DNA of 63,122 nucleotides, filler included, from Kipferlia bialata (lineage: Eukaryota): assembly GCA_003568945.1 (NCBI GenBank). It is 5 parts of 5 records of this genome, joined end to end, with 100 filler letters (N's around TTAATTAATTAA, not from the genome) between each part and the next. Parts side by side here need not be neighbours in the genome. Positions count along the whole stretch, not along the records: positions 48,799 to 57,715 come from BDIP01000652.1; 4 more parts are not named here. One strand, given 5' to 3'. A model generated the notes under the pieces. That model did not search any database. It had not been told where the DNA came from and saw only the letters and a list, made by a program, of their open reading frames with translations. Positions 579 through 62,508 of this stretch are shown here, in pieces. The number at the start of each line of letters is the position of its first letter. Position 1 is the stretch's first letter. The position numbers were made by a program, and so were the translations under genes.

Positions 579-615
<37 letters not shown>

Positions 616-21321: not shown

Positions 21322-21364
<43 letters not shown>

Positions 21365-21448
21365 AGCAGGTGTAGCAACCCCAAGTGCTGTATGTTCCAG
21401 CTGTCTCCAGACCAGGACTTCATCAGATGCGTGCACTGCAAGAGACAG
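19971..21448 (+). CDS. Secreted or surface Thr/Ser-rich protein of unknown function (3' structure uncertain)
   Basis: Signal-peptide-like exon MLTHILALCALLALV at 19971, a long exon from about 20306 (YCVTDPIPDATTST..NNSDPS), exon AVVYEASVTMPETVPIGG..HAVAI, then a Cys-rich exon RCSNPKCCMFQ..CVHCKRQ that may belong to another gene. Confidence 0.6.
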
Positions 21449-22185
21449 GTGAGACATTGATATAGATATTTGCATCATAAGAGATTGTAATATATATATA
21501 GTCTCCTATACACATATATAATTTTATTTTCTGAGCCAGACTTCATCAGATGCGTGCACTGCAAGAGAGAGGTTTGATATATATGTGTATATATATAGTG
21601 TGTAGACGATGTAATATATATGTGTCTACTGAACAAGACTTCAGATATGTGCACAGCAGGAGACAGGTGGGGGTATATATTGGCAATTATGATGCATTTA
21701 TGTCAGTATACATAGAGTCATATACGTATACTACAAGGGACTATTACCCAGGTATTATGACATGTATTGAATTACTGTATTTCTGCGATACCGATTGCTC
21801 CATTCGGCAAGGGTGTTTTTGAGCACTCATGCAATAAGGGTCTAGAGCAAATAACAAATTGAGTTATTAGGGGTGCAGCGTTTCACCCGAATTAAGGGTG
21901 CAGGAAACCTCTAACCTCAGGGTGTCAATACGTGCTACTGCAGTGAGTCCTGTGCCCAGTTCCACTATGCAAACGGACACCACCACTGAATAGAACATGT
22001 TAACTACAGTTTCATGTTGGAGCTTTCCATTTTGGTCTGAATATGGTGATTCATTAGGCAATTGACCTACATCTTGATTTGGTATCGTACACTCAAGGCA
22101 AAAACTCTATTTAGTGAATCAAAAAACAAGAATCAAGAATCAATTACCTTCATCGTGACACTCATTGTCTCATTCAAGAGTGGAT

Positions 22186-24304: not shown

Positions 24305-24339
<35 letters not shown>

Positions 24340-24981
24340 CTATATCAGTATATATTGTATATTATACTATATATACATATATCATATATGTAACATATAT
24401 GATACCAGGCTACCAAGGGGTCCCCACCCAAGAGACTGGATACTATACTCTCTCTCTATATATATGTATTATATGATTTCTACATATGTATATTATATAT
24501 TCTTCCCTTTTAGTATCTGATACCAGGCTGCCAAGGGGTCCCCAGCCAAGAGACTGGTGCCAGAGGGGCCACCTGAGCCTCAGGCTGAGGTATATGTGTC
24601 ATATCTGATAGAAAGATTTATTCACATTGACACAGAGACCACCTCCTCAGAATATACTCAGATATACATATGTGTGTGCACTGCAGTACTGATATATAGT
24701 AATAATGGTATATAACACTATGTAAGAACAATACAATAATCTTATACAGGTGGACCTCCCCACTGACGTCACTTTCTCTGAGGAGAGTGAGGGGGAGAGA
24801 GAGAGACAGGACCCCGTGGAGGACCCCGTGGAGGTAAGTTACCATGTTCCCTTCTGGTGCAAAAGCATATGCGTTATGGCAGCAGCCTTGCTACTCACGG
24901 GTATATTTTGGGCTTCTAGGTCTATTGAAAAATACTTGTGTCTCTGGCTCTATACACTTCTAACCCCCAGATCGATGACAG

Positions 24982-25016
<35 letters not shown>

Positions 25017-25372
25017 TCTATATATGTTCTAACCCCCAGGTCGTCGATCTGGGCCTGACCGATGACAGCAGTGAGTCAGAGATCCTCCCAGGTATATGTA
25101 TGAAACTATAATTTATATATTGATAACCGTATATATGTGACTGACAACTCAGTGGCGGACACCTATCACTTTATAGCTATGTATGTGTGAGTTACAGCAG
25201 TATAGAAGACATATTCGAACTGTGACTCCACTGGTCATATATCCACTGACAACTCAGTGGATATATGATCTCTCTCTCTCCCCTTACTGACTGACAACTC
25301 AGTGGATATATGGTATCTCTCTCCCCCCCCCTCTCTCTCTCCCCACTGACTGACAACTCAGTGGATATATGG

Positions 25373-25409
<37 letters not shown>

Positions 25410-27543
25410 GCTGACAACTCAGTGGATGTCATCTTCCATCCTGACAAGACAAAGAGGGCCAAGTGCTACCTGCAGAGAGGGTCCGACATGTACCACAACG
25501 GGAAGGGTACGTTTTTGTTATTTGTATATATTTGTATTTTTGTGAACTATTTGGCAGTGAAACAATCGACTCTTTTATCACTGCTATGCTGTATATTTCG
25601 TCTCTCTAGGCCCCTTCTTGTTGATGTCCGACTGCAGTCATAGATAAGCACTGCACCTCCTTCCACTCATTGTATACATATTCTGTATATTCAATTATAT
25701 ACATCACAATGTTGATAAATAGTTATGTTGTTGTCTCACTGCAGCATCAGATAAGCACTGCACCTCCTTCTACTTTGACATACCCTCGGATCCAACGTGG
25801 AACCTTGAGGTGAGATGTACACGCTGACTTATCATATATATGTATGTATGAATGTGAACACCCCATTCTCGTCATATTACTGGTATCTCTCTAACTCTAA
25901 GCTTTGGTTCTCTATCAAAGATATTCGGTCTTGTATATATATTGCTTTGCGTACCACTAATCTTCAGGTGGAGCTCTACCCATTTGAGGACAGTCACCTA
26001 AAGAACATAATGTGCCTTGGTATTGTCCCTCAGAGCGCAAACTTCAACGTGAACAAGTAAGTAATCCCCAACTTTTGAAGTCTGAAGTCTGACCCAAGTA
26101 GTCGCATTATTTCCGCCGATAGTCGGTACCCAACACAATACTATATATATAATTGCTACAACTAATGTCTAACTATCAGCTCAAATGAGATCCCTGGGTC
26201 CGTCTTCTTCTACCAGGTGGGACCGTTTACCGTTTATAGTACCGTTCAAGTATACAGAATATTACTGACGTGGGGCAGATTGTATATGTCTTAATATATA
26301 TTCATTTCTGCAATTTTCACCCTTACTAAGCTGTCACCTTTCAAGTATACTCGAATGGTACTCATTATACATATAGTCTGAGTATAGAGTATATATATTT
26401 CTGATGAGATATGTATTTCATTTCACTTTGCACATTCTTTGAAAGAACATTTGTGTAATGTGCAAAGAACTTCTTTGTGTCGACACTCCTCACTCTAGGA
26501 CAGCTCTGTGATAAAGATGAAGCCAGGTGACGACTACAAGTTGTCAAACGGGTGAGTAGTATCATATATATCATCATATATCTACATGTATATATCATTC
26601 CACGCATACTAGTCATATATGTATGTAGTATATATGACAAACTGTCAAAATGGTGAGTATGTATATGTATAATAGGCCAAGTTTTCAACTCCAGTGTCAT
26701 GTAATCATACTCATGCATGGTGCAATAATACACACAAGGAGTGGGTGTGGTAGATCCCATACCTGATAGTACATATAGTATACTTTTTGTTCTTGAGTAA
26801 AATCATACGTTTGGTTGTTATGTTCTTTGTTTCACTGTAGGAGAGACGCAAAGGCGGACGACACCAGAAAGTGGCCCCTACCATGTAAGGTAGGGGTGTC
26901 AGTGGTCCCTGGTCGTGTGGACTTCTCGCTTGACGGAAGGTACGACCTGCAGTGTATAGCTATACAATTAGTCATCCATATTATATGCGTGTGTATATGT
27001 ATATGTGTATGTGTATGCTTATATATATATGTGTCTCTGCATTCTTAGCCCAGGTGCGTGGCAACCAAGGTGACCGACGAGGATGAGTCCTACGTGGCCG
27101 TGTTCAGGTATAGTACATAATGCATTCTATGTATTTATATATTCTATGTATACTATATACTATATCTAATATATATACTATATACTATTTACTATATATA
27201 TATATATTATATATACTATATACTATATATATACGTGTACTATATAGTGTACTATATATTCAGGATGAGTCCCACGTGGCCGTGTTCAGGTACAATATAT
27301 ATACTTCTCTCTCCCTCTCTAGTATGGTTCCATATACATATATATGTATGTATGTGTTCAATCATACTCTCCAGATTTCCTACTTCCATTGCTATACTGC
27401 TATACCAAGAGTTGCTGATCCTTACCCTCAGTTGCATTCGCCCAAAAGGAGACCCAGAGAGGGTGTGCAGGTGAGATTTCTCTCTCTCTCTCTCTCTCTA
27501 CACCCTTTTTACACAACAAGATGAAAGAGAGGGTGTGCAGGTG

Positions 27544-27577
<34 letters not shown>

Positions 27578-28217
27578 ACCCTCTTTACACAACAAGATGA
27601 AAGAGAGGGTATGCAGGTGAGACTTCTCTCTCTCTCTCTCTACACACTTTATATATAACAAGATGAAAGAGAGGGTATGCAGTTGAAATTTCTACATCTA
27701 TCTGTCTGTCTCTCCATATGTATATATCTCTGTGGGTGGGTGTGGGAGAGAGTGTGTGTGGGAGTTTACCTCTTTACGTTGACTGGTGTACCAGTATTTG
27801 TACATATACTATTTCTACTTACTTTATATACCTGTACTCAAGTGAATGACCGCTACTGTATGTCCGTTGGAACTCCATGAGCATTATAGTATAATATATT
27901 CTTACTAAAATACTATTATAGTACCATTATAGATTCTTATTATGATACTACATATATTCTTGTAATGTATTCTTGTCCCCGCCCTAGGTGCTTAGGGCGC
28001 AGGACTATGAGCATTATCATGAATTCAATAATAATAATGAATTTATGATTTCATCATGAATCTATCTCTTACTACTGACCTTAGGTGCATAGGGTCCGGG
28101 ACTCCCGTGTACTCTCCCACCACCAAGGCATACCTACGGAAGGGCGGTAAGCGGTGGGTGGAGAAGCAGGATGATAGTGAGGATGAGAGTGAGGGGGAGA
28201 GAGAGAGAGAAAGATAG
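22186..28217 (+). CDS. Multi-exon protein with coiled-coil and acidic regions and a C-terminal SPRY/B30.2-like domain (paralog A)
   Basis: Exons include MDTKKTSRRRGRAQ; RNEFVAMLKGQKAGLKAALKKAKKELAAAGQKIQNLTDQVTTLQ; acidic exons; VELYPFEDSHLKNIMCLGIVPQSANF; SNEIPGSVFFYQ; CKVGVSVVPGRVDFSLDG; SCIRPKGDPERVC; RCIGSGTPVYSPTTKAYLRK. The SPRY call rests on the strand pattern only. Confidence 0.55.
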
Positions 28218-29106
28218 TGAGAGAGGGAGAGAGAGAGTGTGTGAGGGAGAAGAAGAGAGAGAGAGACTAAGTCGAATATAGTAGTTGTCAGAGTATGAAG
28301 CAAATTGATCTGGAACGTCTGTGTCCAATACATGAACAAATACAAAGTGTATTCTTCTGTCTGTCACTTATATTGCATCCATCAATTCCGTGAATACTCA
28401 CCTGTCTGACGTCCCCTGGCTCCTCGAACGTGGTCTACTCCTATTGTGTTATCTGACACACATATAACGCAATATATCGTTACTCTGTTGTACGAATCAC
28501 CTTTCGACTCTTTGAACTCTTTGACAGAAAGAAGGTAGTGAATCCATTCGGGAGAAGGCAGGTAGAAATGGATACCACATCCTCAAACTGCAGAATGATG
28601 CATATTTATTTGTATATGTATCATACTTTACGGATGGGTCAGAATTAGATACTCTCCGCCCATAGTGTCGTAGACAATGAGTCAGTATTACAAGTGGTGT
28701 CGACATTGGGGATTGCTTCAGAAATAGTATTTGGGGTCTCTTTTCCAAGCTTTTGTTGAGTCTGCATATCCTGCGGCAAAGAATCGGGTTATGTTACCAT
28801 TTCATAGGAACATGGTTGACGTGTAATGTAATTCTAAGGTCGCTTTGCAGGCTCTGTTTAAACTTGCATCTCTTCATATTCTGTCCAGTAATCAGGACGC
28901 CAAATGAGGAGGCTTTGAGGGTTGTAGATCTAGTTGGACAGAACCAGAGAGACAGAACTCGGGCAATCTATTGAATAATTATTAATACAGAAGACAAATT
29001 CTTGATACGTGTACTATATAGCTCTCTCGCTGACACATTGAGTTATGGGCAACTTGCTCTCGAGTGCCACCTTACTCCCTCCCCCCCCCTCTCTCTACAC
29101 CCCTAT

Positions 29107-29680
29107 TCAGGTCTCCACCTGAGGTGAGGCATCACCCTTGCGCCCACCCTGCTTGGCAGGCACCTCTCTCTCTCTCTCTCTCTCACCCTCTGCTGCTCTG
29201 GGTGTTGCTCTCTCTCTCCTTCTCTCCAGTCTCTGTCTCTCTCTCTCAGCCAGTCTCTCTCTCCTTGCGGCTCTCTCTCTTCTCGCCTCTGCCTCTCTCT
29301 GCCTCTCTGCCTTCAGGATATCCTTGTCGGTCTCTGGAGAGAACCTTGGTGCTGTGCTCTTGAGGCACCTGGACATGAGAAATACCCTAAAAATCCCAAT
29401 ATTTAAACTAATTATTATAATTACCACTATATATATATAATATAATTGGACATCAGATATATACAATATATCATAATGATAACATACTATTTATATAATC
29501 GAGAAGAAGACTAATACACCCACATCTTATATGTGGGCCACATATATATACTAATTTGTATACATATACCTGCAAATCAGTCTCTGTCCGCCCCCTGCTG
29601 GTCTCTTGCAGCTCAGAACGACCACATACTCCTGGCCCTTATCAATGTTGGCCGTCTTCACAGGCCTAAACATTAGGGGT

Positions 29681-29721
<41 letters not shown>

Positions 29722-32391
29722 CCAAATACCTGCATATCCGACTTAGCATATATATAGACATATGCATATGCGAATAAGAATACGCATAAGGAAATACCGA
29801 GTGTATAGTATCATATATATGCATATATACTCTATTATAGGGCACACTATTCTCAAAGCAATACTGATTTTCTTCACCCATTCTCCCATTACCTCAGAGA
29901 TAGGGTCCAAAGAGAGAGAATAGAGGGTCCAGAGAGAGAGAGGGGGGGGGGAGAGAGATACACACCTCCCATTCATGAAGAAATCAACCTTGCCCGCTGC
30001 TGAGGCAATGGCAATGCGCATCCTGACGCCCTGGGAATTAGAATAATCTAAATTAGAACTAATTCAATTAAAACTAAAGTTTAGTTTAAACGATACTCTG
30101 TAGAATTCATTTCACAATATAGAATTACTAGGACCTAGTAGCATTCTACTATATACTATCCCTTTTGATTATTGAAGCCCCACCTGAGAATCTCCCTTTG
30201 TCGACCATTCAGGGGCCTCATCAGTGAGTGGGCTGTTTGTGAGACTTTGTATATACTAATATATAACTATATCGCTACACGAAGAAATAACTATATATAC
30301 AATATATTCAGTACATATACATATAGAAATATATATATATACTGTAGAGGTCGTGCTCCGTCGTGTACTTATACCACCATATATAGACATATCATTACTG
30401 TTGTGATACATGTTGGCACAAATGTGTATATAATGATTTTTAAAAGAGAAATCATGACACTACCACATTAATACATTATCACTATAACACTATTACTACA
30501 CTATTAATATAAGACACACCTTACTCGTAGCGTCTTAGTTCCCCTGCGTACTTTAACGAAGGTGCCAATCTGATAGTAGACGACAGATCCCATGATGTTG
30601 CTCTCGCTCCTAGGGGTGAGAGGTGTCGTAAATGAATAGGCATCGCAGCAAATGAACATACTACAAAGAGAAATATGTTATGTTCCCCACCATTCCAGGT
30701 TGAGCTTCGGGAGCTGGCTCCGGGGCATCACAACCAGGCAGAGGTTCCTTGTTTCGTAGTCTGTCTCCTTGAAGTGCTCAAAGGGATACAGTTCCAGCTG
30801 GATGTAAGTGAAATAGAAAGACAATACATAATATATAATCTCCCTGCGAGGGAGGAATCGGATCCAACTATATTGCTCTTACGCTGTACACTATATATAT
30901 GTATTTAGAATATATATGCAATATGAATATACATATGAATGCAATTAGTATAAGAGTATTAGTGTAAACGTTTACACTGAATAAAAATGCACGCTGCACG
31001 CTATATGTATCACAAACATATCAGATTCCTCGGGTACTGATCAGACATGTACTATACACAATACTGCACGTACTTACACCTCCACTTGTCACCAACACCA
31101 CTTAAACACATATATAGATATACATATGGTATGATACATATCTACATATACATATCATTCCACGCATATTGATATGTATACCACACACACAACTCTATCA
31201 TGTATGATACTATTCACACATGTATGATTACATACATATACTAATGTATTACACGTACCTCTATCTGCGACTCCTCGGGTACAGGATCCTCGTGCTCAAA
31301 CACCACCGAGGCCCAGTGACCTCCCACTGATGGGTAAGTGAATCTCTCTCTCTCTATATAGATATACATATATAGATATACATATATATATATGTATATA
31401 TCAAACTATTAGTATTATATAAGTACTATAATGGGAATAAGTATGCTGTAGTATATATATATATATATACATATATATACACCACCGAGGCCCAGTGACC
31501 TCCCACTGAAGGTGTAAGTGCATATATACACAAACACAAATATGCATATAGATTCTAGTATAGCATTGAAGGGATAGAGAGAGAGCAATTTACTGTGTAA
31601 AGGTAAAAGTGCATACATACGTTATAGTGAAAATATACATATAAATGAACATTATATATATATAGAGAGAGAGAGACAGAGAGAGGGTAAGAGGGCTGCA
31701 TTCAAACAGAAACTCTCAGGTGTACATAGAACATATACGTATATGTAGATCATGTATACAGAGCATATAGAGCAGAGGAAGGCCCCACTGATTGGGCAGA
31801 GTGCTATACCGCATAGTGTTAGGTATATATATATATATATGGTATATATATATATATATGGTATATATATACCTGTCCCCTTGTGGTAGCACTTGTTGCC
31901 ATCCAGCCTGAAGGCATCAGAGACAAGAGTCTCGTCAAACTGAGGGGGTACTGACAGTAAGATGCATGTATAGTATACATTAGAGTATACATTATACGTA
32001 TAATATCTATATTTACATTAGTATATATAAATGAATTGTATATATTATACTGAGACGGAACTGAAGGTAAGGTGTATACACATACAGAGAAGAAGACAGA
32101 AATACATGGACATAGACAAAGACAGAGTGACCCGTATATACAGAGATACTTAGAAATGAGAGGTATGAAAGTGGTCTTTATACACATTAATATATCAACC
32201 AGAATCATATTTGTATATATGTAGAAATCTATGCAAATACACATGCCCATTGAGAGTATATACAGAGTACACACATACTATAATATACAATAGGAGGGCA
32301 TACAGAGCACATATATACATATATAACAGGAGGGAGAGAGAGACGTACCGTCCTCATCTATTGACTCGTCGCTCTTGCTCTCCTCATTCTC
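29107..32391 (-). CDS. Multi-exon SPRY-like paralog B (5' end truncated by the contig end)
   Basis: Exons LELYPFEHFKETDYETRNLCLVVMPRSQL; SNIMGSVVYYQ; MRIAIASAAGKVDFFMNG; YVVVLSCKRPAGGGQRLIC; RCLKSTAPRFSPETDKDILK plus a charged tail. Colinear with paralog A. Confidence 0.6.
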
Positions 32392-32813: not shown

Positions 32814-35800
32814 CCATCCCAACATCAGCTATGCCTCCCGAGCTGTGATCAGGAAGAAGCTGGTCTTCAAGGCCAAGCCCATCCTGTGAGATGTACACGT
32901 TCAGTTGTGCTATTGCTGTGTTCGCCAGTTTGCACCATGCTGATACTGAGCCAGCCCGCGGAGGAATCTTTCCAGATCGCCTGAGAGAGAGAGGGAAGGA
33001 TATGGATGTTGTGAATAGGAGGGTGCAAGTGGGGATTGCTCCCCGTGTGCCTTTAGTCACATCTCTCTATGCTGACTGACATAGGATACTTTTGATACTT
33101 GAGGCTTCTCTTCCCTCCATCTTGTGTCCCGATATAGCCCATTGCAGAGTCAATAGAACACACATGTCATTCAGTTTCACCAGTACCTCAGTATATGATT
33201 CTATTAGTAATACAGCAGCCCCCTCTCTTCAGAGTGAGGCTCTCTCCATCTCCCATCTGGCACTTAGAGGCTCATTGGCACCACCTCCACTCTCTCCCTG
33301 GCCACAGTGACGTTGTTCCACCTGACAGTGAGGGTATACACACAATACTAATATATGTAATGCAATATATAGATCTACTCATCTCCAGTCTGAGAATCCC
33401 TTCACCCACTCTGTATCAATATGTGTTATGCAAATATACAGTTAGCCACACTATACGTACCTGAGCTCCACGGGTCTGAGCACCCCTGCCTCGGCCCTGA
33501 CAGGCACGATGGTGGGGGACCCAACCGCACTCTGCCTAGAGGGTGAGTGTATATTTACACATAGAGAACAGACTACACCTTATCACGGTATATATTGAGA
33601 GTATGGTGGGGGAGTCCACGGCGCTCTGCCTGGGGGGTGAGGATATAGATGACAATGGAATACCTACGCTATATACTCTGTATGTCTCTATACATCTACA
33701 CCTCCTCACCTGAGTGTGTCTATGGCCAGGATGAGTGATACCCCATAATACCATATATATGTATACAATACACCCTACATTTCTCTATGTATATACATCC
33801 CCTCACCTGAGTGTGTCTATGGCCAAGATGAGTGAGTCCTGCACCAGCTGGGCGTCCTGAGGGGTGGTGTAGTCGTCAGAGACCTGGGGTGAGGACGGAG
33901 AGAGAGAGAGAGAGAGAGAGAGACATGGGCAATAAACTTTACACTATCCACCACACACTATCCACCACACACCTTGACCATGACCCTGGTAGCACTGCCC
34001 TGCCTCCATGGGCATCTCTCTCTCTCTCTCTCAATATATATATATATATATACATATATATATACTATACACCATACCTTGACCATGACCCTGGTAGCAC
34101 TGCCCTGCCTCCATGGGCTGGGAGGGAGGGTCATCTCAACACGGGGCACACACACAAACTTGTGGGTGACTGGGCCGTGTCTGTATGGGTCCCACTCAAG
34201 GGCCACACTGGGGGTCAGGGGCATAGAGGTACGTACACAAGTCACAAATACACTGTTTACACCCACATCCCCCTACCTGTGTCCACCGTATGCCAGCCCC
34301 TCTGGACAGACCTGTGTGAATGTGATGGTGTTCCTGGCCTCCCCCACCACAGGGGCACAGGGCAGCTCCATACCATCCACCAGTACACATATGCTGTCCA
34401 CCCACATCTTGGTGGCGGCAGAGAGAGGCTCCTCGAGTGTCCTCGACAGAGAGCACTCCACGACTATGGGAGTCTTGCCCCTGTGGCAGATGGCCGGTGT
34501 CTTGTATGCAATGGAGTCTATGGTGAGGCCCCCCTTGGTGGGTGCCACCCCTGTCATGACAGGATGCAGGGCCAGGCAGGCATTGTCAACCACAGACAGG
34601 ATGCACAGGCCGTCCAGTGGGGGGACATAGGACTCGGAGACCAGGTCCTCCTCGGAGTGCTCCATCTCTCTCTCCTTCTCCCTCTCGCTCATGCCCTTGG
34701 CATAGAGCAGCTTGAGGGCATGGAAGGAGAAGACTGAGGCACGGTGCCTGGACACAAGGGCGCCCAGAGCAGACTTGGCCTGGGGGTCAGGGGGGGAGAG
34801 GGAGTAAGTCAGAGAGAGAGAGACTCTCGCTATATATGTACATAGTATATGGCCATACCTTCTCTGTGTTGTCGTGCCCCACTGCGTCGACCAGGGCATT
34901 GACCACAAGGGTGGTGCCGGCATAGAAGTTGGAGGAGAGCTGCAGATCGGCCAGGGTGCCCTTGAGAAGAGCACACTTGTGGGCAACAAGGCTCCTGAGG
35001 AGGGCCTCGGTGCCCTGGGGTCAGTGTCATGCACAATACCATATATACACTGTACTATATATACACCCCCCCACCTGTCTCTGCTCCTCCACCACGCTGA
35101 TACCATATATATATACTCTCTCTCTCTCTATATATATATACATACCTGTCTCTGCTCCTCCACCACGCTGGATGCCAGGGTGGACAGGGANTATACATAC
35201 CTGTCTCTGCTCCTCCACCACGCTGGATGCCAGGGTGGACAGGGACCTAGACAGCAGCACAGCCACCATCATTGTGCAGGCATGGGTGGCCACAGCCTCC
35301 TCCAGCCTCTTGGGCACATCCAGGGTCACGTCCTGCTTGTTTAGGAGCTTGCCCAGGGCCCACATGCCAGCCTGGGGTTGGGAAGGGGGTCTCTGTATAT
35401 ATATGTATATATACATACCTTGATAGCGGCGTGTCCACTCTTGAGCCACCTCTCCAGGGACACGGCATGGGGGAGGTCGGCTAGGAGGGACCGGAAGTTA
35501 CGCCTGTTGGCCAGCAGAACCTAGGGGTCAGTGCACAAACACACTACACTCTCTCTCTCTCTATATATACTTATATATACACACGTACCAGGCCTGTGTG
35601 GAGTGACACGGCCCCCTCGAGCAGGGTGTCTATCCTGCCACACACATCGGTACAGTCCAGGTAGCGCAGACCCCACTGCTCCCTGGGGGGTGAGGCAGAG
35701 GCAACTACAGAATATCACAGTAGAGTGTTACTGTATGCACCCACCTGACTGTCTCGACCTGGTCCCTGAGGCCTGTGAGCCTGAGGATGTGTGCAGACAT

Positions 35801-38614
35801 GTCACCAAGGGAGGTGTAGCTGGGCTCCACATACAGCTTGTCAACGGTGGGGGCCTCGAGGGACCTGGGGGTTAGGTGGTAGGGTATATAGTGTATAGTA
35901 TATATGTGGATGTATATCAGACAGGACTCGAGGGACCTGGGGGTCAGGGGCGAGGGGGGGAGGGGGGAGTGCGACACACTACATATACTATATATATAGG
36001 CACTATTCTCACCTGATCTTGTCCTCGTGCACCAGTAGCATGGTGCCAGCAGCCCTAACAGCCATCTGCTCCCGGAGGGACAGCACGCTGGGGTCAGAGG
36101 GAGGGGTGGTAAAAGTATACACAGACATACACATAAGGTAGTACCTAGGGACAGGACACTGGGGTAAGAGAGAAGGTCAGCAGGGGAGACCATCAGTAGG
36201 AAGTGTAACATGTAGAACATATATGTATATATACAGCTCTGCATAGTACCTAGGGAGTGCGGGCACGTCCACTGTGAATGTCTCTCTGAACAGAGCCACG
36301 GACAGGGGCAGTCTGGGCTCGGGGGTCTCTCCCTCAACGGGCTCCACATCTGCAGAGTCATCCTCTGAGAACCTGTTCTGGGGTAAGGGGGGGGGGGGAG
36401 GAGCGAGAATTCAAGCTAAGCCGCTAATAAGTATAGGAGAGAGGGAGGGAGAGAGAGAATACTTATCATGTACTCTGTCCTGAGTACCTTTGTCACTATA
36501 TATATACCTATACACCTCTATATTAATATATAGTGTACATACATAGTATATCCTACATACCATGTACTCTGTCCTGAGTGCCTCAGTCACCATGTCGGGT
36601 GCTGCCTCCAGAATGGTCTGGGCCACATCCACTGTGCCCCTCACAGCTGGCACACCCAGCTCAACGCAGCAGGCATCCCACTCACTGCGGTAAGACAACA
36701 AGAGAGAGAGAGAGAGAGAAAGTAGGAAATACGCCAAGCTCAACACAGCAGGCATCCCACTCGCTGCGGTAAGATAGATACACACACATAGAGAGAGAGA
36801 GGTATGGGGCATATATGTAGAGACACCCACCTGACGAATGCCAGCAGTCTGCATGCCGTTGCATATGTGGGGACGGGTGTCCTGACAGAGTCGGACAGAA
36901 CGGACACAAGGGTCTTGGGCAGAGCCTGGGGTCAGTGGAACATCATATAGTCTACTCTGGTAGCTAATTCTAGTGATAGACATCTATACATAGCCACCTG
37001 CTGTATGTGCTGGGCCACACTGGGCAGGAGGTACAGCATATACAGTGAATACAGTAGTGCATACAAATACATCACTCATAGAACCCACGTATATACCTGC
37101 TGTATGTGCTGGGCCACACTGGGCAGCAGGTGTCTGGTCTGCTCGTTGGAGTGCAGGGACCGGAGAACACCCGTGGTGGCAGCACCCAGCCTGGGGGTTA
37201 GACCAATACGAATACCCATAGACACTCTACGCTCACACACATATATATACCCACCTAGCTCTCCACGACTCGTACTACATCTGGCCAATATGTATACCCA
37301 AGCACATATACACTGACGCAACACTATCCTTATATACCATACACTTCGTATGTACCTTGCCCTCCACGACTCGTACTCCATCTGGCCAATATGAATACTA
37401 ATCATATGTACACTGACGCAACATTATACATATATACACTATACATACATTCATACGATACACTACGTATGTACCTTGCCCTCCACGACTCGTACTCCAT
37501 CTGGCCAATGGACCCGATGGACTGCACGGCTATGCCCACATTGGACAGAAGCTGGGCCTCGAAGTCCTGGGGAGTGAGGATACATATATATATAGAGTGC
37601 ATATTGACACTTCAACAGTCTGTGCTAACCCACAATACATTGATACAAAGTCCTGAGGAGTGAGGATAGTGATCAGTATATATAGGATAGTGATACGGGT
37701 ATATGTATATGCTGACGAGGCTGGGCCTCGAAGTCCTGGGGAGTGAGGATATATAGAGTGATGCATGATAGTCTGTATTGACCACAACACATAGTTTATA
37801 TATATACTCAATAATGTACACACCTTGTGCCACTGTGCTGTCTATTATTATCAATGCATATGTACAACATATACTATACTATACTATATTCAATATGCAC
37901 TATACTATACTACTGCATAGACACACCTTGTGCCACTGGGCTGTCTCTCCCTCTGACATCAGCACCTGCAGGGCCTCAAACACAAAGGCACGGGCATTCT
38001 CATCTGCACAGGTGAGGACACACAGGACGTATACCCAAACACGAATACAATATATATATATAAGAATATACATAGGTCAGACATGCATACCTCCCTTCTG
38101 CAGTGTCTGCAGGAACCCGTCTGCGAGCTGTGGCACTGTGATCTCGTGCATGGCCTGCTCCACCTTGGATATGGGGGTGCGGTCCTGGGGTGAGGGGTGA
38201 GGGACAGTATGGATACATAAGAGGGAGACGGAGAGGGAGTGCATGGTACATACATACCTGGGCAGTGTTGAGCTCATAGAGACTGACAGCAGTGGCCAGG
38301 ACACGGTTGGCCATGGCTGGGGACACTGTGGAGACCTTGAGGGCCATCTCGCAGATAGCTAGAGTCAGAGAGACGAGTCAGAAGGCATGCGAACTGGAGA
38401 CTTGTGGGGTGGAATCAGCACAAAGGGGTATACTTACTCTACCTGGGATGTTGAAGCATGAGAGCAGGGCCTGGCTGATGCCTGTGAGCTCCGCCTCGCC
38501 CTCCTCAGAGCCCTGGTGGTTCAGAAGGGGCTTCAGGACCACATGGAAGTGGTTCAGGAAGTCCAGAGCCTGCTGGACCCCAGAGAGGACTGAGTGTGTG
38601 TGTTCCTTCTCCAT
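32814..38614 (-). CDS. Large multi-exon hypothetical protein (helical N-terminal part, beta-rich C-terminal part; 3' end unresolved)
   Basis: Chain of more than 20 minus-strand exons bounded by ..CCCCAG and GT sites, from MEKEHTHSVLSGVQQALDFLNHF through DFEAQLLSNVGIAVQSIG and VVDNACLALHPVMTG to AQLNVYISQDGLGLEDQLLPDH. No family recognised. Confidence 0.6.
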
Positions 38615-49524: not shown

Positions 49525-52500
49525 CTATGGGACATACTCCCTCTCCACACAGTAGTGCGTGGCCTTGGCTACTGCCTCGTGGAACACATAGGACAGCTTC
49601 CTAAGGGGTCAGGGACAGTAGGTATACAATAGCTAATATGTGTATATGTGATGATGTACCTAAACACCCCGTCTGACCCGACAATCTCATTGGCCACTCT
49701 TCTGGCCACAGTCTCAGGCACTGCCACCTCCCTGCCCTCCCCCTCCCCCTCTCCCTCTCCCTCTCCCTCTCCCTCCTCCATGACCTCTGCCTCGAAGGGG
49801 AAGTAGCACACAGGGGGAGAGAGAGGTACACCACCACTAGGGGAGGTATCTAATGGCATAGCTGCGACTGCATCTCCTACCCTAAGTGGAGTAGTGGATA
49901 CAGATGCAGGGTGTGAGATGTCATCGATGTCGACAACAGCCTCAGGCTCAGAGGGGGGCTTGAGGAATCTCATGAATATGGTAGGGAGACCCTCAGTGGT
50001 CTCAGTAGGGTCTATCCTGCTAGTAAGGACACTATTTAGACAACGCATACTATACAGTCATATAGGAGGTAGATACGTACTTGTGTGCCTTTGACCCGAG
50101 AATGGCTATGCCCTCCTTGGCCATCCACTCCCTGAGGACAGAGCTCTCGTTGACCAGGTAGCTCCTGAGGGGTAGGAACAAGTGACTAGATCACCATAGT
50201 ATACCTATCTTACATCCCAATATATACGTACCTCAGTATGATCAGGACGTAAAGGTAGAATGATATCTATATAGATATATGTAGATATGTAGATATATAT
50301 CGTCTACCTCATGCTACTATACATACCTGAGTATGATCAGGACGTCTGCCTTGATGTGCCTCACTCTGTGGTACACCCCATATCTCTTGGCACACTCCTT
50401 GCCACACCGGTACTGACACCCGGCCCTGCTCTTGTTGTACAGACCGGCTAGCTGGTCTGTTAGTATCAACTACAAACAAATATATATGTATACGAGGAGA
50501 AGAACTACTGCATTGCTCTTCTTGTAACAGACAACCGGCTAGCTGGGGGTGAGGTACTCTATTACTAGAAGAGACACGAAACGGGACTCTGGAAGAGGCA
50601 GGGATAGCAAACTCACACACCTTGTACACGTTGCCAATGTGGGACCTCACACGTCTAGGGATGAGGTCCTGGGGGTGAGAGGGGCTTGTTAAACATCCAC
50701 TAATTGGACTTATGGGGTACTACTCCCATATACAGTTATCCCGGGAGTCCATACCTGGTTGATGTCATGGTCATCCTCTGACAACCAGACAACAACAGCC
50801 ACTCATAATTATATCATATATACTAAAATATATACTATACTATAATGTATCCTATAATACCTGGTTGATGTCATGGTCATCCTCCTCGGATATCTCATCG
50901 TTGCCAAGCTCAGGCAGCACTGATGGGTCAGATGTAGCTATGTTTCAACCCAGCTCAACATATACAAATATATATCGGGATATAAATATATATACCAATA
51001 TATCGATAAATGTCTATATATACCTAGTTGAGATGGCGCCAGAGGTGCAGGCTCCAGCAGGGGCACTGCCTTGACAGGTGTGTCTGTGGCAGTCTGACCC
51101 TTTGGCCTAGTGGGGGATGCCATCCCACTGTACCCCTCTCCCTCTAATGCATCTTTATCTACCAATGCCTCCACCTTGACCTGGGGTGATGCCTGGGACC
51201 GCCTCACCAGGTGTCTCCTCTTAGATCTAGGGGAGGCCTCGTCCTTGACCTCCTCCACTTCCTCCTTCTCTGCCTCTCTCTCTTCCGCCCTATGCCTCTG
51301 TGTGGGTACAATGATGCCGGAGCTGCTGTCAGAGCTCTCCTCCTGCATCTTTCTCTCTCTCTCTCTCTCCTCTGCCTTCTGTCTCCTTATCCTAGCCAGG
51401 TGGGGACCAAGCAGGGCGCCAATCTGGGAGTGAGAATCCCAGAACAGCCAGGCATAATGGAAAGCATCTTGAATGTATGCACCAGCTACCAACCTCGTCC
51501 ACCTTGGCGTCACTGACGTCTGACTCCTCCCGGTCATCTTCCACATGCACACGGCACAGCCTGAGAGTAAGAAAATAGAACAATACTATAGCAGCCAAAT
51601 GCATGTGGAAGATCCTCGATAAGTATGACCATACTGTACCTGTTTGTCTCCCCCTGTGCTCCCTCTGAGTCATAGTAGAAGCCACCCAGGGTGACAGTCC
51701 TGGGGTGAAACTAAAACACTAGCGCAGGCGCAGCCGTGCGATGGTACAGTGCTTTCGAGTGTATATAGCTTTCTGGAGTGCCATTGAATCATACCTCGTA
51801 ATCTGACTCTTCATGTTGCAGAAAACATAAGAAGAAATGGTGAATGTATCTGGATATCTTACTACTGTGTAGTTGGAGCATACCTCGTAATCTGCCTCCT
51901 CATGTTACAGATCTCACAGGTACCACGTCTCTCTCTCTCCTTGTCAAATGCCTCAATCTTGAACTGGGAGAAACGATCACCTGTAAGTCAGAATACTGCA
52001 TGGACTATCTAACACAGAAGACACAACTCCACAACGGGAGAGTGACGAAGAGAGTAGAGACAGTAACCCGTACACGTTGTTGTGACATGCTTGCCCCAGT
52101 TGCCACTCCTGGCTGCGTCCATGGCCTGTTGTGCCCTGCCCTCGACAAGGGCCACAGAGCGCATGACCTGGGGGGGTGAGTATGGTATGGCATGTATCCA
52201 TGCATGTGTGATGTCTATTCCAACCTGAGTCTCCCCCTCCACTGCGTCTGAGAGTGCCCGTCTACATATGTCTTTCTCTCTATATATATACTTCTCTACC
52301 TGAGTCTCCCCTTCGACTGCGTCTGAGAGTGCCCTTCTATCTAACATCAGGGCAAGGCACAGGTACCACAGCCAGTGGCAGTAGTGGTCACTCTCAGTCA
52401 CCCTGATGGGTCAAAAACAGGGTATCTATGTAGACAGAGAGTATATTTATGGTATATCTATCCATACATTTATGAGAGAGGTGGTTGTCGAGAGAGACAA

Positions 52501-54609
52501 GGGCAGAGAGAGGGTGTAATTAATCAAATGAATATGATTGTAATACCCCCCACCTGGAGTCCGGGTCTGCCTTCCCCTTGTGCCACCCCACCTCTCCCTC
52601 CCCCTCTCCCTCTGCACCCTCCACCAATGCCTCCCCTGCCCTCAGACCCAGTCTCCTCCTTCGCTTGTCAATCATGATGTCCTACAAGTCAGATACTGAT
52701 ATATATGGTGTATATGGTTTAGAGACATGTCCTACGACGCTTGTCAATCTTGATGTCCTGAGGAAAGGGTGAATATGGTGTGGTGTATACCAATATGATA
52801 CCAACCCCCACCTGTGTCATCCTGTGGTACTGTACAATGTTGGTGGGTCCCTCATCCCTAGGGTATATATACACTACTCATCAATATACATAGTAGATGC
52901 CAATAGCATATATACAGCACTCCCTAACCTGTGTCATTCTGTGGTACTGTGCAATGTTGATGGGCCCCTCGTCACTGACACCCTCACTGCACTCAGACAT
53001 TGAGTGTATACTGACGTCATCTGGCACTATGAAGTCACAGTCCTCCTCGGCCTCTCTCTCCCTCCTCGTATGCTTCAGCCTGGGGCGGTACTTGTCCTGG
53101 TCACGCACCCTAGGAGTCAGGGATCAGATATATACTATATATATACAATACAAACCTCTTCTCCTCTGCCCTCCGTCTCCTGTCCTCAGCCTTTCGGGCA
53201 CTCTCACTGTTGCGCCTCTCCCTCATCAGCCTCTCCCTCTCCCTCCTCACCTTCTCCTCGGCACTCAGACCTGAAGTGTCAAATTCTAATAGTAATACAT
53301 GTATTACTCAGGAATACTTCTATATATAGAGAGAGGGAGAGAGAGAGATATACACCTTCTCCTCGGCACTCAGGCCTGGCAGGGTTAGAAAAGGAGATCA
53401 TAAATATACATGTGGGTGTGTGTGAATGAGAGTGTAAACATATACATATATATCGTACCCTTCCTCCTCTTTGACGCAAACCCCTCCATCCCGTCACTGG
53501 ATGATGTACCTTCTCCCTCATACTCACTCTCATCCTCTCTCTCTCTCCTTCTCTCCTTGCGGGGCCGCTTCTCAGCCTTCTTTGCAGCCTTGCGAAGGGA
53601 GGCAGCTGGGGTGAGAAATAATGGATATAGAAACACACAATAATGTATATATATACACCATAGTATGAATATATAACGATACAGGTATATCTATTCATGC
53701 GGAGGGACGCAGTTGGGGTTAGAGAAAATATAGAAGAAGAAGAGTACGGGGAGAGAAGAAGAACTAGTGGGTATGGGAGGGTGGGTGGGAGGTAGCTGGG
53801 GGAGGTTAGAAAGAGAGAAGGGAGAGGGTAGAGGGAAACCATAGGGTGGGTAGAGGAGAGTGACACAGGGAGACAAACCTTTGTGACGAGACCTAATGGA
53901 ATATACACAAATCACACTACGGAGAGGATAAGAAGTATCTGATAGCCTATCAGTGATAGGTCTAAATGTACACGATACAGAGTCAATCCTCCAGTAGGAA
54001 CCAATGTACACAGAAGATACCTTAGATGTGTAATACCAGAGCAATAGGGATATCTACACTAGAGTAGTGGTACTAAGCTGCCGTACCTCCCCCCGCAAAG
54101 AGGTCTGAGCATCTCATGGCGAGGTCTGAGGACTCACTCTCTGACACTGCCTGCATCTCAATCTGGCTGGAGGGCTCAGGTTCTAGGTCACTGGCCTCAT
54201 ACACCGACACAGAGTCACTCACCACGTCTGCCTCAACATCCCTCCCCCTCCCCCTCCCCCTCTTCGTGGGTCTGGCTGGGGTGGCCTTGATAGGACTTCC
54301 CCTCCTCTGCAGCACCCTCCTGCCAACACTTCTCTCCTCTACCTCCTCTCTCTCCTCTAACACCTCCTCTACCTCTTCTGGTATGTACTCATCACTATCT
54401 GGGCCATCATCCTCCTCCTCAGATGCCTCACTGTGTCTCCTCTCTCTCTCTCTCCCTGTCTCTCTCCTTGTCTCTGGTAGGGGGTCGGCCAGCAGAGGCC
54501 TGCCCTTGGTCACACCCTTTCCATCCACACCATGCACCGCAGATGCCCTGGTCGACTCAACAGAGGCAGGGTTGCGCCTCCGCAGCACCCTTCTGGCCAT
54601 ATGTACCAA
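49525..54609 (-). CDS. CCDC82/DUF4211-like protein (charged low-complexity N-terminus plus Cys/His domain), multi-exon
   Basis: Acidic/basic N-terminal exons with DFIVPDD; HWLWYLCLALMLD; GTCEICNMRRQITRTVTLGGFYYD; YRCGKECAKRYGVYHRVRHIK; terminal KLSYVFHEAVAKATHYCVEREYVP*. This matches the CxxC..LxGxxY..GxxCxxRxxxYHxxxHxK pattern recalled for DUF4211. Confidence 0.62.
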
Positions 54610-56737: not shown

Positions 56738-57650
56738 TTCAGCGAGGCCCCCCCGCTCTGCCCCCCCAGGTACCAGGAGAGGTGCCAGTATGAGTAGGGA
56801 TAGAGTGGGTAGTGTGGACAGGACAAGGAGGGCATCGACAGCCAGGGGGCGGGGGAGGGAGAGGGGGTCTTCTGGTGCTCCACCTGGTAGTCCCAGGAGT
56901 GTATCCTCCTCCTCCTCTTCTAGGAGATATAACGGCACCATCCCCAGGGTGTCGATAGTCAACAAGGGAGAGAGAGAGGAGTGGGATGTTGGGCAGGAGA
57001 GTGCCAGACAGGCGCAGAACAGAGTCAATAGGATACGGTCCCCCTCACCCCTGCCACCCGACATGGGAGTCCTAGCTAGGAGGCTCACCAAAGTGTTCCA
57101 GGTGCGCCATATATATATATATTAATGTATATTTATATATATATTTATATATATTGATTTATATATATGCGTCACCTGACATGGGGGTGCTGGCCAGGAG
57201 ACTGACCAAAGTGTTCCAGGTACGCCATATATATCGTAGATACTATAGTATGATACATACACATGTATAAATATATATGCTTCACCTGACATGGGGGTGC
57301 TAGCTAGGAGGCTGACCAAAGTGTTCCAGGCATGTCATATTAATATATTATATACTAGTATAACACATACACATGTATATATATATATGCACCACCTGTT
57401 ATGTGGAGGTGTTGGCCAGGAGACTGACCAAAGTGTTCCAGGTACCCTACACATATTGTAATATGACACATTTCTATTAGCCTATGTATACATCACCAGC
57501 AGTCTATCTATATAGGGTCTACCAAAGCGTTCCAGGTACGCCATACATATGTTGTATATAGTATAGTATGACCCACATAGTTTTATATGTATATATGTAT
57601 CAGCATCCCTACTAACCTCTAGGAGAAGCTGCATGACCAGGCCACCTACA
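54883..57650 (+). CDS. Arg/Ser/Pro-rich multi-exon hypothetical protein (3' incomplete)
   Basis: MSGTPLRSQPTSARLSD..FLEQYLSPNDRQ and further exons through PPDMGVLARRLTKVFQ / EKLHDQATYID. Confidence 0.6.
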
Positions 57651-57658
57651 TTGATTCC

Positions 57659-57715
<57 letters not shown>

Positions 57716-58069: not shown

Positions 58070-59008
58070 GTCAGAGTGCAGGGTGTTGTTACCGATGTAC
58101 CATCCCCCCTTATGATGCTGTCCATTGGCCAGAGTGAGGGTAACCCAGTCCCCATCAGATACACCACGGACAAGGCCTTGAATGGAGACCAGTTCGAGGT
58201 ATGGGTATATATATATATATATATAGACTGTCCCTGCCAGCACTGTTTCTCTGAGATGGTCTCTCTCTCTCCATCTTCTATTGTATGCCCTGTAACCCTC
58301 AGAGTGTCACCCCCATTGAAAGACACTCCATACTCTCTCTCTCTCTCTCTAATATCTCAGGGTGTGACCCCCATTGAGAGGTACTACTCTCTCTATATAT
58401 ATATATATGCATATATCTCCCTCTTCTGTTTTCCTGTATAATCTAATGTATCAGGGTGTGACCCCCATAGAGAGGTACTACACCCTGTCCAGGGCAGTGA
58501 TTGCACCACCTCAGAACCTGTCACCCGGTAAGTAGACGTGTGTATAGAGAGGTTGATACCGTACTTATATATACATTCCTATGTATTGGTATCCTCTTAC
58601 CCCAGGCTTTGAGCATGTGAGTGCCCTGGCCCCTCCCTCAGACTCACTCACTCTCCTGTTCCCTGGCAAGGTATATATATGTATATGTATATATTAGTGC
58701 TCTTCATAGCAGTACTAACCCCTAGCTCTCCCTCCCCCTGTGCCAGGTGGTCACAGCAGTGGGTCTCATCGACAGTGTGGTGCAGGTATGGTGGTATAGA
58801 GTGGTCTATCTATATAGACATTAAGATTGAGATTGCTTTGCATATATACATATATATATATACATTAATATCGTGGGTCTCATCGACAGTGTGGTGCAGG
58901 TATCTCAACAATACACTCTCTCTTAGCTGTATCCCCCTCACACACTCTCACCCCAGGAGTCTGACCCCTTTGCCGATGTCGAGATGGTGGATGGGGCCCA
59001 GGAGGTGG

Positions 59009-59056
<48 letters not shown>

Positions 59057-61128
59057 CATAGGAAGTGCTCCTTCCCGCCCTGCGTGTTCTCTCCTATGAG
59101 ACCTCGGACTACTACCCACACACACCCTCTGAGGGGGCACCTGCAAAGGCACCCATCGAGACACTCTCCTCACTGTTCTTAGGTAACTAGGCCTATAGGA
59201 TACATACACACACACATATATATATATATAGTATATATATATATATATACCATCTGAGGGGGCACCTGCCAAGGCATCTCTGCAGACACTGACATCCATG
59301 TTCACAGGTATCTCTAGGCATGTAATGAGTGTTCTTGTACATACATATTCACACCCAGTGGATGGGGATGCTCTGATATCAGCCTATATATACCCACACA
59401 CGTATATACATATAGTTATATGGATATAGATACTCACGTACTATACTGACCCCAGGTGCTGGCATATAACTATGATACTATGTATCTCTGTAACAATATT
59501 CCCATGCCTATATACTTTCCTCACCCCAGGTGCCGTGGACGGGGATGCCCTGGTATCCACCTGTATGCATACTCCTATATATATATATATATATGTGTGT
59601 AAGGCTTCATATCTATGTATATACTATCCTCACCCCAGGTGCCGTGGATGGGGATGCCCTGGTATCCACCTATATACATACCCATATGTACATGTGTGTG
59701 AATATGTATGCCTCTATGTATACTATCCTGACCCCAGGTGCCGTGGATGGGGATGCCCTGGTGGCCAGGGCCCTTGCCCTGTGGACTGTCATGGGGGTGG
59801 TGTCAAGGTGTGTATGTATAGTATATCTATATATATTACTCTTTAGTGATGTATAAATACACTGGGCCTGTGGACTGTTATCGGGTGGTGTCCTGGTATG
59901 TGTATATATAGAGTATATATATATTCATTGCTATACCAATGTCTTACCCTGTATATATATATATATATGCCCACCCTAACTCCTCAGAGTGGGCATCACC
60001 CCTGTTGGCCAGGTCCCAGTCAACCTGATACCAGACACAGAGGTGGCAGACGAGAGTCAGGTATAGATATATATATATAGAGATGTGTAAGACAGAGAGA
60101 AAGAGATATACCAGACACAGAGGTGGCAGACGAGACACAGGTAGGGAGAGTAATGTATATATCAATATATAGATGGTATATATGCATATGAGAGAGAGAG
60201 AAGGATAGAGAGAGAGAGAAATACCAGACACAGAGATGGCTGACGAGACACAGGTATATACATATAGATATGTGAATGTAGAGACATATATTCATGTATA
60301 AGAGGGAGAGAGAGAGAGAGAGGGACCTGACGCAGAGGTAGCAGACGAAACACAAGGGAGTGTGTATTCTTCATATACAGATGTTCAATCATATCTAGCT
60401 TTGTCTTTATCCTCACACCCAGAGTGTGTACCACCGCGTGTCCTCTGTCCTATCATCCCTCCTCCCTAGGGTCACAGGTACCACTACGCATATGCATATG
60501 CATATGTATTCTGTATGTATTCATATATTCATATGTATACGATATGTTGCACTGTATATGTATTCATACTGACCCAGGTCTCGCCCTGGCATCCCCCGAG
60601 TTCGGCAGCAGCCCTCTATACCCAGAGCAGGTATATATATATATGCCATATAGTATATATATTCTCATATGAATATATAGATATGGTATGTATGATACAG
60701 GTATTGCATAGGTATGATGTGTTACTCTCCTCTATACCCAGAGCAGGTATAGACAGTATATAGCATACCACTGTCTGTCTCTCTCTGTATCTCTCTCTCA
60801 CCTCTCGGATCCCAGCACTTCCCGTCTATGTTATACTGAAGAGGAGCATAATAATACACATCACTCCTATCTCTTTTTCTCTCTCCCTCTGTCTCTCTCA
60901 CTCCCAGGACCCCAGCACCGCCCGTCTCTCCCCCTCCCCCCTCCTAGCCCCATCTGGTACATGCGTCATAGTCAGTGAGAGTGGGCTGGAGGAAGGTGCC
61001 AGGCTAACACCTGGTACGTAGGTCGCTGCTCGTATAGTTATCTGTGTAGTAGACTATCAAATCTCCCTCACCCCCCAGTTGCCCAGGATAATGTGAGGTG
61101 CCTCAGCATACTCGCCAACCAGCAGGTA

Positions 61129-61174
<46 letters not shown>

Positions 61175-61403
61175 ATCGCTCTATATGTCGTTGTCTCACC
61201 CTTCAGCAGCTCCATGTTCGCTCTGGTGGTGCCTCCTACCCTGTGCCTGTGGACATCTCAACCATGTTTGTATCAGCAGCAGGGTCCAGGACAGTGTTTA
61301 GGTTAGATATACTCTCGCTCTGTATATATATGTGTGTATTCTGCTGTATACCTAAATACACCTTACCATCAGGGGCATGGCCGAGGTCGATGCCCTCCCC
61401 CTC

Positions 61404-61454
<51 letters not shown>

Positions 61455-62508
61455 GTGTCTATATACACTTACTTACACCAGAGGAATGGCCGAGGTCGAT
61501 GCCCTCCCCCTCTATGTCTCCCCTTCCACCTCTGAGACCCTAGCAGACAGGGATCAGGGGGCGGTGCCTATGTGCAGGGCAGCAGTAGGTGTGTAGTATA
61601 TTGCTGTAGTATTAGAGTATCAATCTCCGTGTCTAGTAACCCCAGGCGATGCCAAGGTCAGGTATAGACAGGGTGTGGAGGTTTCTGAGGATGCCCTGAA
61701 GATAGCAGGGGTGGATGTCACAGCCACACTCGACAGAGTGAGAGGTCTACTCACTAAGGTACTGTGTATATACATGTATATGCACATACATACATATGCA
61801 CACACGTATATATGTGTGCACTGTCTCATCCCCAGCATGCCATGGAGGGAGTCCAGCAGCAGCCACACATTCATACACTGCTATGAGTATTCATGTATAT
61901 ATGTATGTGTGTATATATGTATACATCATGTTGATCTCACCCCCAGCATGCCATGGAGGGAGTGCAGCAGCAGTACACACTCTTCGGACACATCATGTCA
62001 TTCGCTAGGTAAGAATTCGAAGTGTCCCCCGCCATGTATATAAACTGGTGTATTATGCCTATGGTCGAAGACACATTTCTTGTGCTTGAGGCCATATTCA
62101 ACTTTCTTTTCCTGACGATGCTACTGCTGTCTAGACCTTACTGCATATTTGTGTAAACACTCTATATTCCGGTGCTTACCCCCAGGGCCACTGCCGCTCT
62201 AGCTGGGGAGGACGCCCTGACCACAGAGGTACAGTATATGTGGATAGTTTGTAATATGTATGGAGTATATATAGATAGATAGGGCGTGTTGTACGGAGAC
62301 AGTATATGTGTGTCTTTGTATGTACTAATGGACGCCCTGACCACAGAGGTACCCCTTGTGTGTGTTATATGTGATCTCTCTAGATATAGGTTAATAACCT
62401 CCAGGCCTGGACCCAGTCTGAGTCCCTTGTCCTGTCTCTGTTCTCCAGGGCATGGGACAGGAGGGACCAGCTGCAGAGGGAGAGAGAGGAGATGGAGGGA
62501 CAGGACTA

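Follow-up and report, generated by a model that had tools for sequence, protein, structure and literature searches.

Exon-edge echoes in the introns of Kipferlia bialata: partial tandem copies with mostly silent differences from the exon

Background

Tandem copies of exon-intron boundaries, known as mirages, have been described in amphioxus in Adh3, the globin genes BflGb6 and BflGb9, troponin C and PGBD5 (PMC3087553, PMC3902484). According to the globin study, mirages may arise from either side of an intron, often carry AG/GT and leave splicing undisturbed; it calls their mechanism unclear and describes amphioxus as highly heterozygous (PMC3087553). Here we report comparable copies, which we call echoes, in the DNA of Kipferlia bialata, a free-living, diploid fornicate with 124,912 GU-AG introns (PMC5874029). 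An earlier note on this DNA had spoken of an undescribed system, but the layout itself was already known from the amphioxus mirages (PMC3087553). The words "synonymous" and "silent" are absent from the main text of the globin paper (PMC3087553), and among titles and abstract openings we found neither a description of such copies in Kipferlia nor one of a silent bias in mirages.

Like mirages, echoes are minisatellite-like tandem copies across the exon-intron boundary, with both boundary types copied (27 donor and 22 acceptor edges); many units, although not all, retain the splice signal (GT in 32 of 40, AG in 26 of 32), and normal splicing is intact, as seen here at the focal edge only, in an RNA contig. 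Mirage units, of tens to about 160 bases, are also comparable in size. The two differ in that mirages come from single chordate loci, whereas in this fornicate protist echoes are present in 38 of the 90 curated introns, and in that amphioxus units are 81-100% alike over their full length, whereas here the flanks are near saturation and the exon-like part is conserved. Echoes are a mirage-type repeat; we have not found their density, the measured silent excess or the flank turnover described.

In the Rogers model, and reportedly also in the work of Gao and Lynch in 2009, introns are gained through tandem duplication of an AG/GT proto-splice site. As in such gains, a piece of the gene is duplicated locally, at splice signals or close to them, and the protein stays the same; echoes, however, lengthen an existing intron (260 versus 105 bases), and just 9 of the 72 copies would be able to found a new one. 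Mutually exclusive exons arise from whole-exon duplication. Such exons likewise lie next to each other, have a silent bias in their differences and are flanked by diverged intron sequence; echoes, in contrast, are partial, have one splice site and a median length of 27 bases. Finally, comparisons of genes with their pseudogenes include a term for ancestral polymorphism, under which a young dead copy shows allelic, selection-filtered variation plus neutral decay. Echoes may be compared with such copies, but here the term would concern tens of edge copies of 15-48 bases in one genome, an application that we did not find in the literature.

Materials and methods

The window, that is, the whole stretch of DNA analysed, comprises 63,122 nucleotides from assembly GCA_003568945.1, and all statistics refer to it alone. 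Automatic draft gene models, in which many echoes had been labelled as exons, were corrected via phase continuity, giving 98 exons and 90 introns in 8 genes; about 20 further predicted introns outside these eight curated genes were not scored. Reading frames were curated by hand, with an RNA check confined to the focal exon and a homology check confined to the protease. We scanned every flanking intron for edge-anchored, ungapped copies of the exon, and echoes broken by an indel were counted just up to the first indel. The flank analysis covers 70 of the 72 copies, two having been dropped as too close or containing an N. Public contigs, examined over the focal exon only, were taken from a DNA run (X1) and from a run (X2) that proved to carry spliced sequence; the word share of X2 (0.40) was kept out of the evidence. 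Contigs drop rare forms and bubbles: they show presence, not absence. Alternative histories were compared in a toy population simulation of 200 individuals, with one run per setting.

Results and discussion

Composition of the window

The DNA is intron-rich, with GT..AG introns that are packed with TA and CT repeats. Four identical blocks of N, 100 bases each and with a central word that carries stops in every frame, lie at 16185, 32453, 48699 and 57716 and have the look of joints between separate contigs; long runs of G or C are often found where a piece starts or ends. Nine of eleven translated stretches have no Pfam family, and the 462-residue exon at 46561 had no homolog among 7998 scored candidates. 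A Helitron-like element occupies 7278-14950 (+) with three long intronless frames, the last of which carries Helitron_like_N and PIF1 domains; over 99% of its length, this helicase frame (11633-14950) shows 100% identity to a protein labelled Kipferlia bialata, the next relative standing at 56%, and the two frames upstream of it, of 605 and 755 residues, gave no Pfam match. An intergenic direct repeat of about 305 bases (2875-3177 and 3721-4027, 90% alike) is not TA-rich. Exons that begin ELYPFE and are similar by eye occur at 25968-26056 (+) and 30797-30691 (-) in neighbouring genes on opposite strands, which suggests that these genes may be an inverted paralog pair.

The focal exon and its echoes

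Four partial copies of the end of one exon follow it downstream of position 57101 (Table 1), and Tandem Repeats Finder reports a 110-base period across the array. The copied edge consists of the final 47 bases of the exon. The earlier note had described the recurrence of 57057-57101 at 57175-57219 and 57285-57329, and our codon-by-codon comparison reproduces it exactly: every one of the seven differences in echo 1 is silent and at a third position, and the four in echo 2 are all silent. The partial copy that it placed near 57520 corresponds to echo 4, and the decayed copy that it placed at 57405-57441 is present, although slightly longer than was thought (echo 3). Its description of echo 2 as a patchwork of exon and echo 1 is one possible reading; a nested series without homoplasy, with three changes between echoes 1 and 2 and four between echo 2 and the exon, fits too. 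Echo 3 has the silent states of echo 1.

The spacer ahead of echo 1 indeed contains no AG, as had been noted, and there is no full exon body; a cassette or mutually exclusive exon was rejected on these grounds. With an AG of the second spacer as acceptor, an in-frame stretch of 81 bases, 57249-57329 (+), would run to the GC of echo 2; it lacks a branch-like motif and does not occur in the RNA contig. The hairpin-forming focal spacer has a z of -2.2; fold-back was rejected as a general cause, 48 spacers having a mean of -0.54 versus -0.69 in 31 echo-free control introns. The focal gene belongs to no known family: a Pfam search of the focal exon gave no match, and among metagenome contigs none of 595 pattern matches was confirmed as a relative. 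Farther downstream, the stretch at 57623..57661 is likely to be an echo from the acceptor side of the next exon and not the exon itself, because it mismatches the RNA and enters a CT repeat with no donor; the next exon as it stands in the RNA is absent from the window. Alternatively, the difference from the RNA may be allelic.

Table 1. Features of the focal array and spans of echoes elsewhere in the window
Feature	Positions	Strand	Remarks
Working exon	56743..57101	+	Phase 1 start, phase 0 end; X2 RNA contig matches with 0 differences
Used GT donor and first TA-rich spacer	57102..57172	+	Without AG; hairpin-forming
Echo 1	57173..57219	+	47-base exon-end copy; 7 silent, 0 replacement differences; then GT
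Echo 2	57283..57329	+	4 silent, 0 replacement differences; then GC; between exon and echo 1
Echo 3	57393..57441	+	2-base insertion and replacement changes in 5' part (dead); then GT
Echo 4	57521..57535	+	Short remnant, one replacement change; then GT
Likely acceptor-side echo of next exon	57623..57661	+	1 base off spliced RNA, at 57650
Cathepsin B-like (Peptidase_C1) gene	16461..19509	+	14 echoes; 17 silent, 11 replacement differences
Span of 12 echoes, 19-exon gene	33603..37843	-	Codon positions 3/3/14
Span of 7 echoes, 16-exon gene	50232..53375	-	Includes two-base silent arginine change AGG/CGT, 52757-52730
Span of 12 echoes past N block	58361..62348	+	Donor and acceptor side; possibly another gene, another contig
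Span of 7 echoes	522..2014	-	Codon positions 3/4/14
Span of 13 echoes, three genes	21291..31505	.	No silent excess: 4 silent, 7 replacement

DNA and RNA contigs at the focal locus

One X1 contig, of depth 430, spans the focal exon and matches it with 0 differences, and a second has echo 1, with its 7 differences, joined to TA-rich intronic flank at depth 483; of 900 words sampled from 49000-57650, X1 contains 0.98. X1 is possibly the source of the window, so this agreement is not independent. The earlier note had allowed that haplotypes or paralogs might have been stacked in tandem by the assembler, here at TA repeats. The short-read assembly, the microsatellite-rich introns and the N (35191) within one perfect 55-base duplicate would suit such an artefact, as would the fact that no single contig or long read crosses the whole array and none spans the exon together with echo 1. 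However, echo 1 sits behind intronic sequence in a contig of the run's own at full depth, nearly all sampled words are present in X1, the decay of echoes 3 and 4 excludes them as alleles, and the polarity of the copies is strict; an assembly artefact is extremely improbable.

The X2 contig, of 1720 bases, is spliced RNA that matches the focal exon exactly; the sequence that precedes 56743 in it corresponds to the end of exon 56508-56665. At the focal edge, the only one covered, it carries the exon's own version, uses the exon's own donor and runs on into a next exon that is one base off the copy at 57623. The main mRNA uses the exon's own end. As to which silent variants occur in spliced mRNA, on which the earlier note had placed weight, this one contig has the exon's version and the echo version was not seen in contigs, where rare forms are invisible. 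Over the 359-base exon we found no second allele, neither as another letter nor as a contig at 80% likeness, in X1 or X2, which is a weak test since contigs drop bubbles; the isolate looks homozygous at this exon.

Extent across the window

Echoes are not peculiar to the focal exon: 72 copies occur at 49 exon edges, with a median distance of 96 bases. Because about 20 introns are uncurated and no edge copy is listed from 38.0 to 50.2 kb, the share of introns with copies is nearer one in three across the window as a whole than the share among curated introns. The median lengths given above, 260 and 105 bases, are those of introns with and without copies. Donor copies lie exclusively downstream and acceptor copies exclusively upstream of their exon, and a control search on the wrong side gave 0 matches over 41,617 positions, so the copies are not due to chance. 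Among the echoes of the protease gene are two four-copy arrays, one on the acceptor side (17040-17381) and one on the donor side (18483-18771). As regards silent differences, the focal array stands at the far end of the distribution and by itself overstates the effect.

At 35136-35245 an exon end has a perfect 55-base tandem duplicate with a single N, at 35191; this is either the most recent echo or a heterozygous site that has been collapsed. At 2316-2345, beyond the preceding exon and beside a long G run, the start of exon 1808-1741 (-) recurs; this copy was left uncounted and may reflect a longer-range duplication or a misjoin.

Silent differences exceed those of a dead copy

Mismatches between copies and exons number 22/24/91 at codon positions 1/2/3 over 2034 bases. 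Counted as steps, 83 are silent and 47 are replacements (pS about 0.18, pN 0.033), with a dN/dS of 0.19 (edge-level bootstrap 95% 0.12-0.27); the value is 0.18 with the nearest copy only and 0.21 (0.13-0.31) without the focal edge. Base composition was rejected as the source of the third-position bias, dN/dS remaining at 0.16-0.27 under five mutation models (kappa 1-5, twofold GC-to-AT bias), and so was an error of frame, since shifted frames give 2.3-2.4.

The earlier note had expected a dead duplicate to mutate evenly over codon positions, which is the wrong null. When we simulated a dead copy beside a constrained exon, with the same trimming, mean dN/dS was 0.48-0.57, and the lowest of 150 runs was 0.20-0.31 in four settings; the null lies near 0.5 and not at 1 because the branch of the exon adds silent changes only. 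This null is rejected both for all copies (binomial P 3e-4 to 9e-11) and for the nearest copies with the focal edge excluded (P 0.013 to 9e-6). Hence the silent bias that had been pointed out in the focal array is present window-wide, and it is stronger than a dead copy permits. It is found in five genes and is absent in three small ones (4 silent, 7 replacement). Stops account for 2 of 41 replacement differences, and the severity of replacements lies between random and conservative (mean BLOSUM -0.29 versus -0.61 expected, P 0.13). Divergence grows with copy rank (rho 0.34, P 0.045), and dN/dS does not rise with it, the silent and replacement codons being 50/27 in the nearest copies and 28/16 in those farther away.

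A dN/dS well under 0.5 indicates that both lineages were working exons for most of the time since their split. The protein-level selection proposed in the earlier note therefore stands in part: selection shaped these sequences at some time, as dN/dS falls below the null, but selection on a sequence while it is an echo is unsupported. Most likely, selection acted before the sequence became an echo.

These data can also be set against the possibility that echoes are dead copies taken from the same chromosome, each a snapshot that decays randomly, with the silent sites of the exon changing faster than neutral through codon or GC selection, biased conversion or a higher exon mutation rate. No sex would be required; the focal changes are nested, divergence is greater in the farther copies, GC content is 72% at third positions versus about 39% in introns, and stops and frameshifts occur. 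At equal rates, however, such copies predict the rejected value of about 0.5, and the silent sites of exons would have to evolve at some 3-5 times the rate of neutral echo sites in each of the four base-change classes, whereas the rate in introns seems to be higher, not lower. Differences private to one array copy, which are unpolarised without an outgroup, are silent-biased too (20 versus 14). We judge this explanation unlikely.

Flanks and splice signals

The flanks of the copies are homologous to the exon's own flank (scores of 4.9 and 7.3 versus -0.4 and 1.1 for unrelated controls) and near saturation, with a mismatch of 0.30-0.31 against 0.35 in an unrelated control; the calibrated divergence is about 0.6-0.8 per site. 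Even the 21 pairs with an identical exon-like part have equally diverged flanks (mismatch 0.32), and a near-identical flank was found in just 3 of 70 copies. Within arrays, a few unit pairs are 95% alike and most spacers differ at 20-40%. A whole-exon tandem duplicate at 22843-23201 (+), with two in-frame 63-base exons that are 2 bases apart, has 12/40 and 9/40 differences in its flanks versus 2/63 in the exon, which suggests that introns may change several times faster than exons, or else that the exons are homogenised. Echoes as remnants of once-working whole-exon duplicates were rejected, with 1 whole duplicate (22871-23141) versus 49 echoed edges.

In a DNA-level cassette, conversion or repeat-mediated deletion would be frequent enough to expose amino-acid-changed copies to selection, much as the earlier note had proposed with its gene conversion or unequal exchange with the exon. 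Exon-like parts remain alike (14/242 differences) while spacers diverge (103/623, for 10 well-aligned spacer pairs of 37), and echo 2 is readable as a mosaic. Somatic instability of an amphioxus mirage has been reported, as related in a citing passage of the globin study (PMC3087553), and single-strand annealing is thought to be available in metamonads (PMC8516963). Exchange fast enough for selection, however, would erase the silent differences as well: symmetric conversion between exon and echo gave a simulated dN/dS of 0.61-0.71, even at s = 0.5, and not the observed 0.19, and reached 0.40 when allelic recombination was added. Nor was a converted exon version found among the DNA contigs, which drop rare forms. 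We therefore consider a cassette of this kind very unlikely.

The nearest acceptor copies, compared at 22 edges, score 3.4 versus 2.6 for used acceptors and -8.2 for random intronic AG, and differ from the used acceptors at 5.7 of 14 bases; they bear the signature of a once-working yet different splice site, in the manner in which two functional versions of one gene differ. Two acceptor-side copies, at 53375-53353 (-) and 58361-58387 (+), share their terminal AG/GT with the exon; the same protein would result whichever copy was used, and these are candidate intron gains underway.

Such signals might be put to use if some transcripts took their exon edge from an echo, by a second small splice or by a homology-guided non-canonical junction, in which case echoes would be translated and directly selected. 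Direct selection readily yields a low dN/dS in a large population, the copies retain GT, AG and strong acceptors at the frequencies given above, and the spliceosome of the lineage is described as reduced, with no snRNA candidates found (PMC6679479). Against this, the sole RNA contig has the exon's version, and an equivalent GT/AG route exists in just 9 of 72 copies (7 of 49 edges, and none of the 4 focal echoes), with the silent excess located in the other 63 (71 versus 36). Moreover, AGGT is no commoner at echoed edges (5/48 versus 17/144), and older copies contain stops and frameshifts. We give very little credence to the use of echoes in RNA. More broadly, echoes could form a working, genome-wide reserve of exon edges, with tens of thousands of intronic copies under protein-level selection, either through a homology-guided junction other than GT/AG in a reduced spliceosome or through repeat-guided repair without NHEJ and Rad51A. 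This is quite unlikely, and the exon-end backup or cassette system that the earlier note had envisaged finds no support in the version carried by the RNA contig, the scarcity of copies with a GT/AG route or the stops among the replacements.

Diverged alleles as a probable source of echoes

The reading that we favour, with somewhat better than even confidence, is that echoes are unused copies that derive from diverged working alleles or have been uncoupled from them by recombination. A break or a stalled fork within a TA/CT-rich intron would start repair, and a template switch would re-enter the exon a few dozen bases inside. A switch onto the homologous chromosome would directly capture the edge of the other allele; after a switch onto the sister, ordinary allelic recombination could later swap the linked exon for another allele. 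Survivors would be only those events that leave the reading frame whole, which would produce the polarity. The difference between exon and echo would then consist of allelic diversity (mostly silent, with splice signals intact but different and flanks much diverged) and a brief period of random decay. Later unequal exchange would multiply units and yield mosaics such as echo 2, and copies would be tolerated since the exon-proximal splice site is used, with quick turnover. The small number of near-identical flanks (3/70) is expected if few copies are fresh sister copies.

In our simulations, histories with recombination or allele capture at theta 0.15-0.3 gave pS 0.17-0.29, pN 0.046-0.058 and dN/dS 0.18-0.33, with about half of the edges occupied; the simulated pN exceeds the observed 0.033. 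At theta 0.03 dN/dS was 0.40, and clonal copying gave 0.56. The process would thus need a historical silent diversity of about 0.15-0.3 together with fast copy turnover. To our knowledge, such diversity is at the top of the range known for eukaryotes. Since no second allele was seen at the focal exon, past outcrossing followed by homozygosity is needed as well as this very high diversity. Two further points speak against an allelic origin: the flank divergence of about 0.6-0.8 needs introns that evolve several times faster than silent sites, for which the duplicate at 22871-23141 is the single supporting case, and the three small genes lack a silent excess while dN/dS is flat with copy rank.

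The amphioxus data offer a comparison. In the BflGb6 alignment in the supplement of the globin study, compared by eye, the exons of the two alleles differ at 5 silent sites, 4 of the 5 states of haplotype 2 are found in the mirage copies of haplotype 1, and units D3-D5 show 6 silent and 0 replacement changes relative to their own exon (PMC3087553). This sharing of allelic states supports, without proving, an origin of echoes from alleles; retained ancestral states may fit it too. As for repair, metamonads are described as lacking NHEJ, and fornicates as lacking Rad51A but having a pair of Dmc1 paralogs (PMC8516963); work on the human protein shows that DMC1 tolerates mismatches (PMC7809202). 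A repair background of the Kipferlia type fits an origin of echoes by template switching, which it may have favoured.

Conclusions

Echoes provide a measurable null for mirage repeats elsewhere and a caution for gene predictors. If echoes were used after all, they would represent a novel route to mRNA or to gene repair. If, instead, they do come from diverged alleles, then introns grow by about 100 bases per step via repair errors, and this genome, although apparently homozygous, keeps short samples of alleles since lost next to at least a third of its exon edges. These samples would provide an estimate of past diversity (silent, about 0.15-0.3) and evidence of allelic recombination in a free-living fornicate, and hence would bear on the question of sex in the Giardia lineage.
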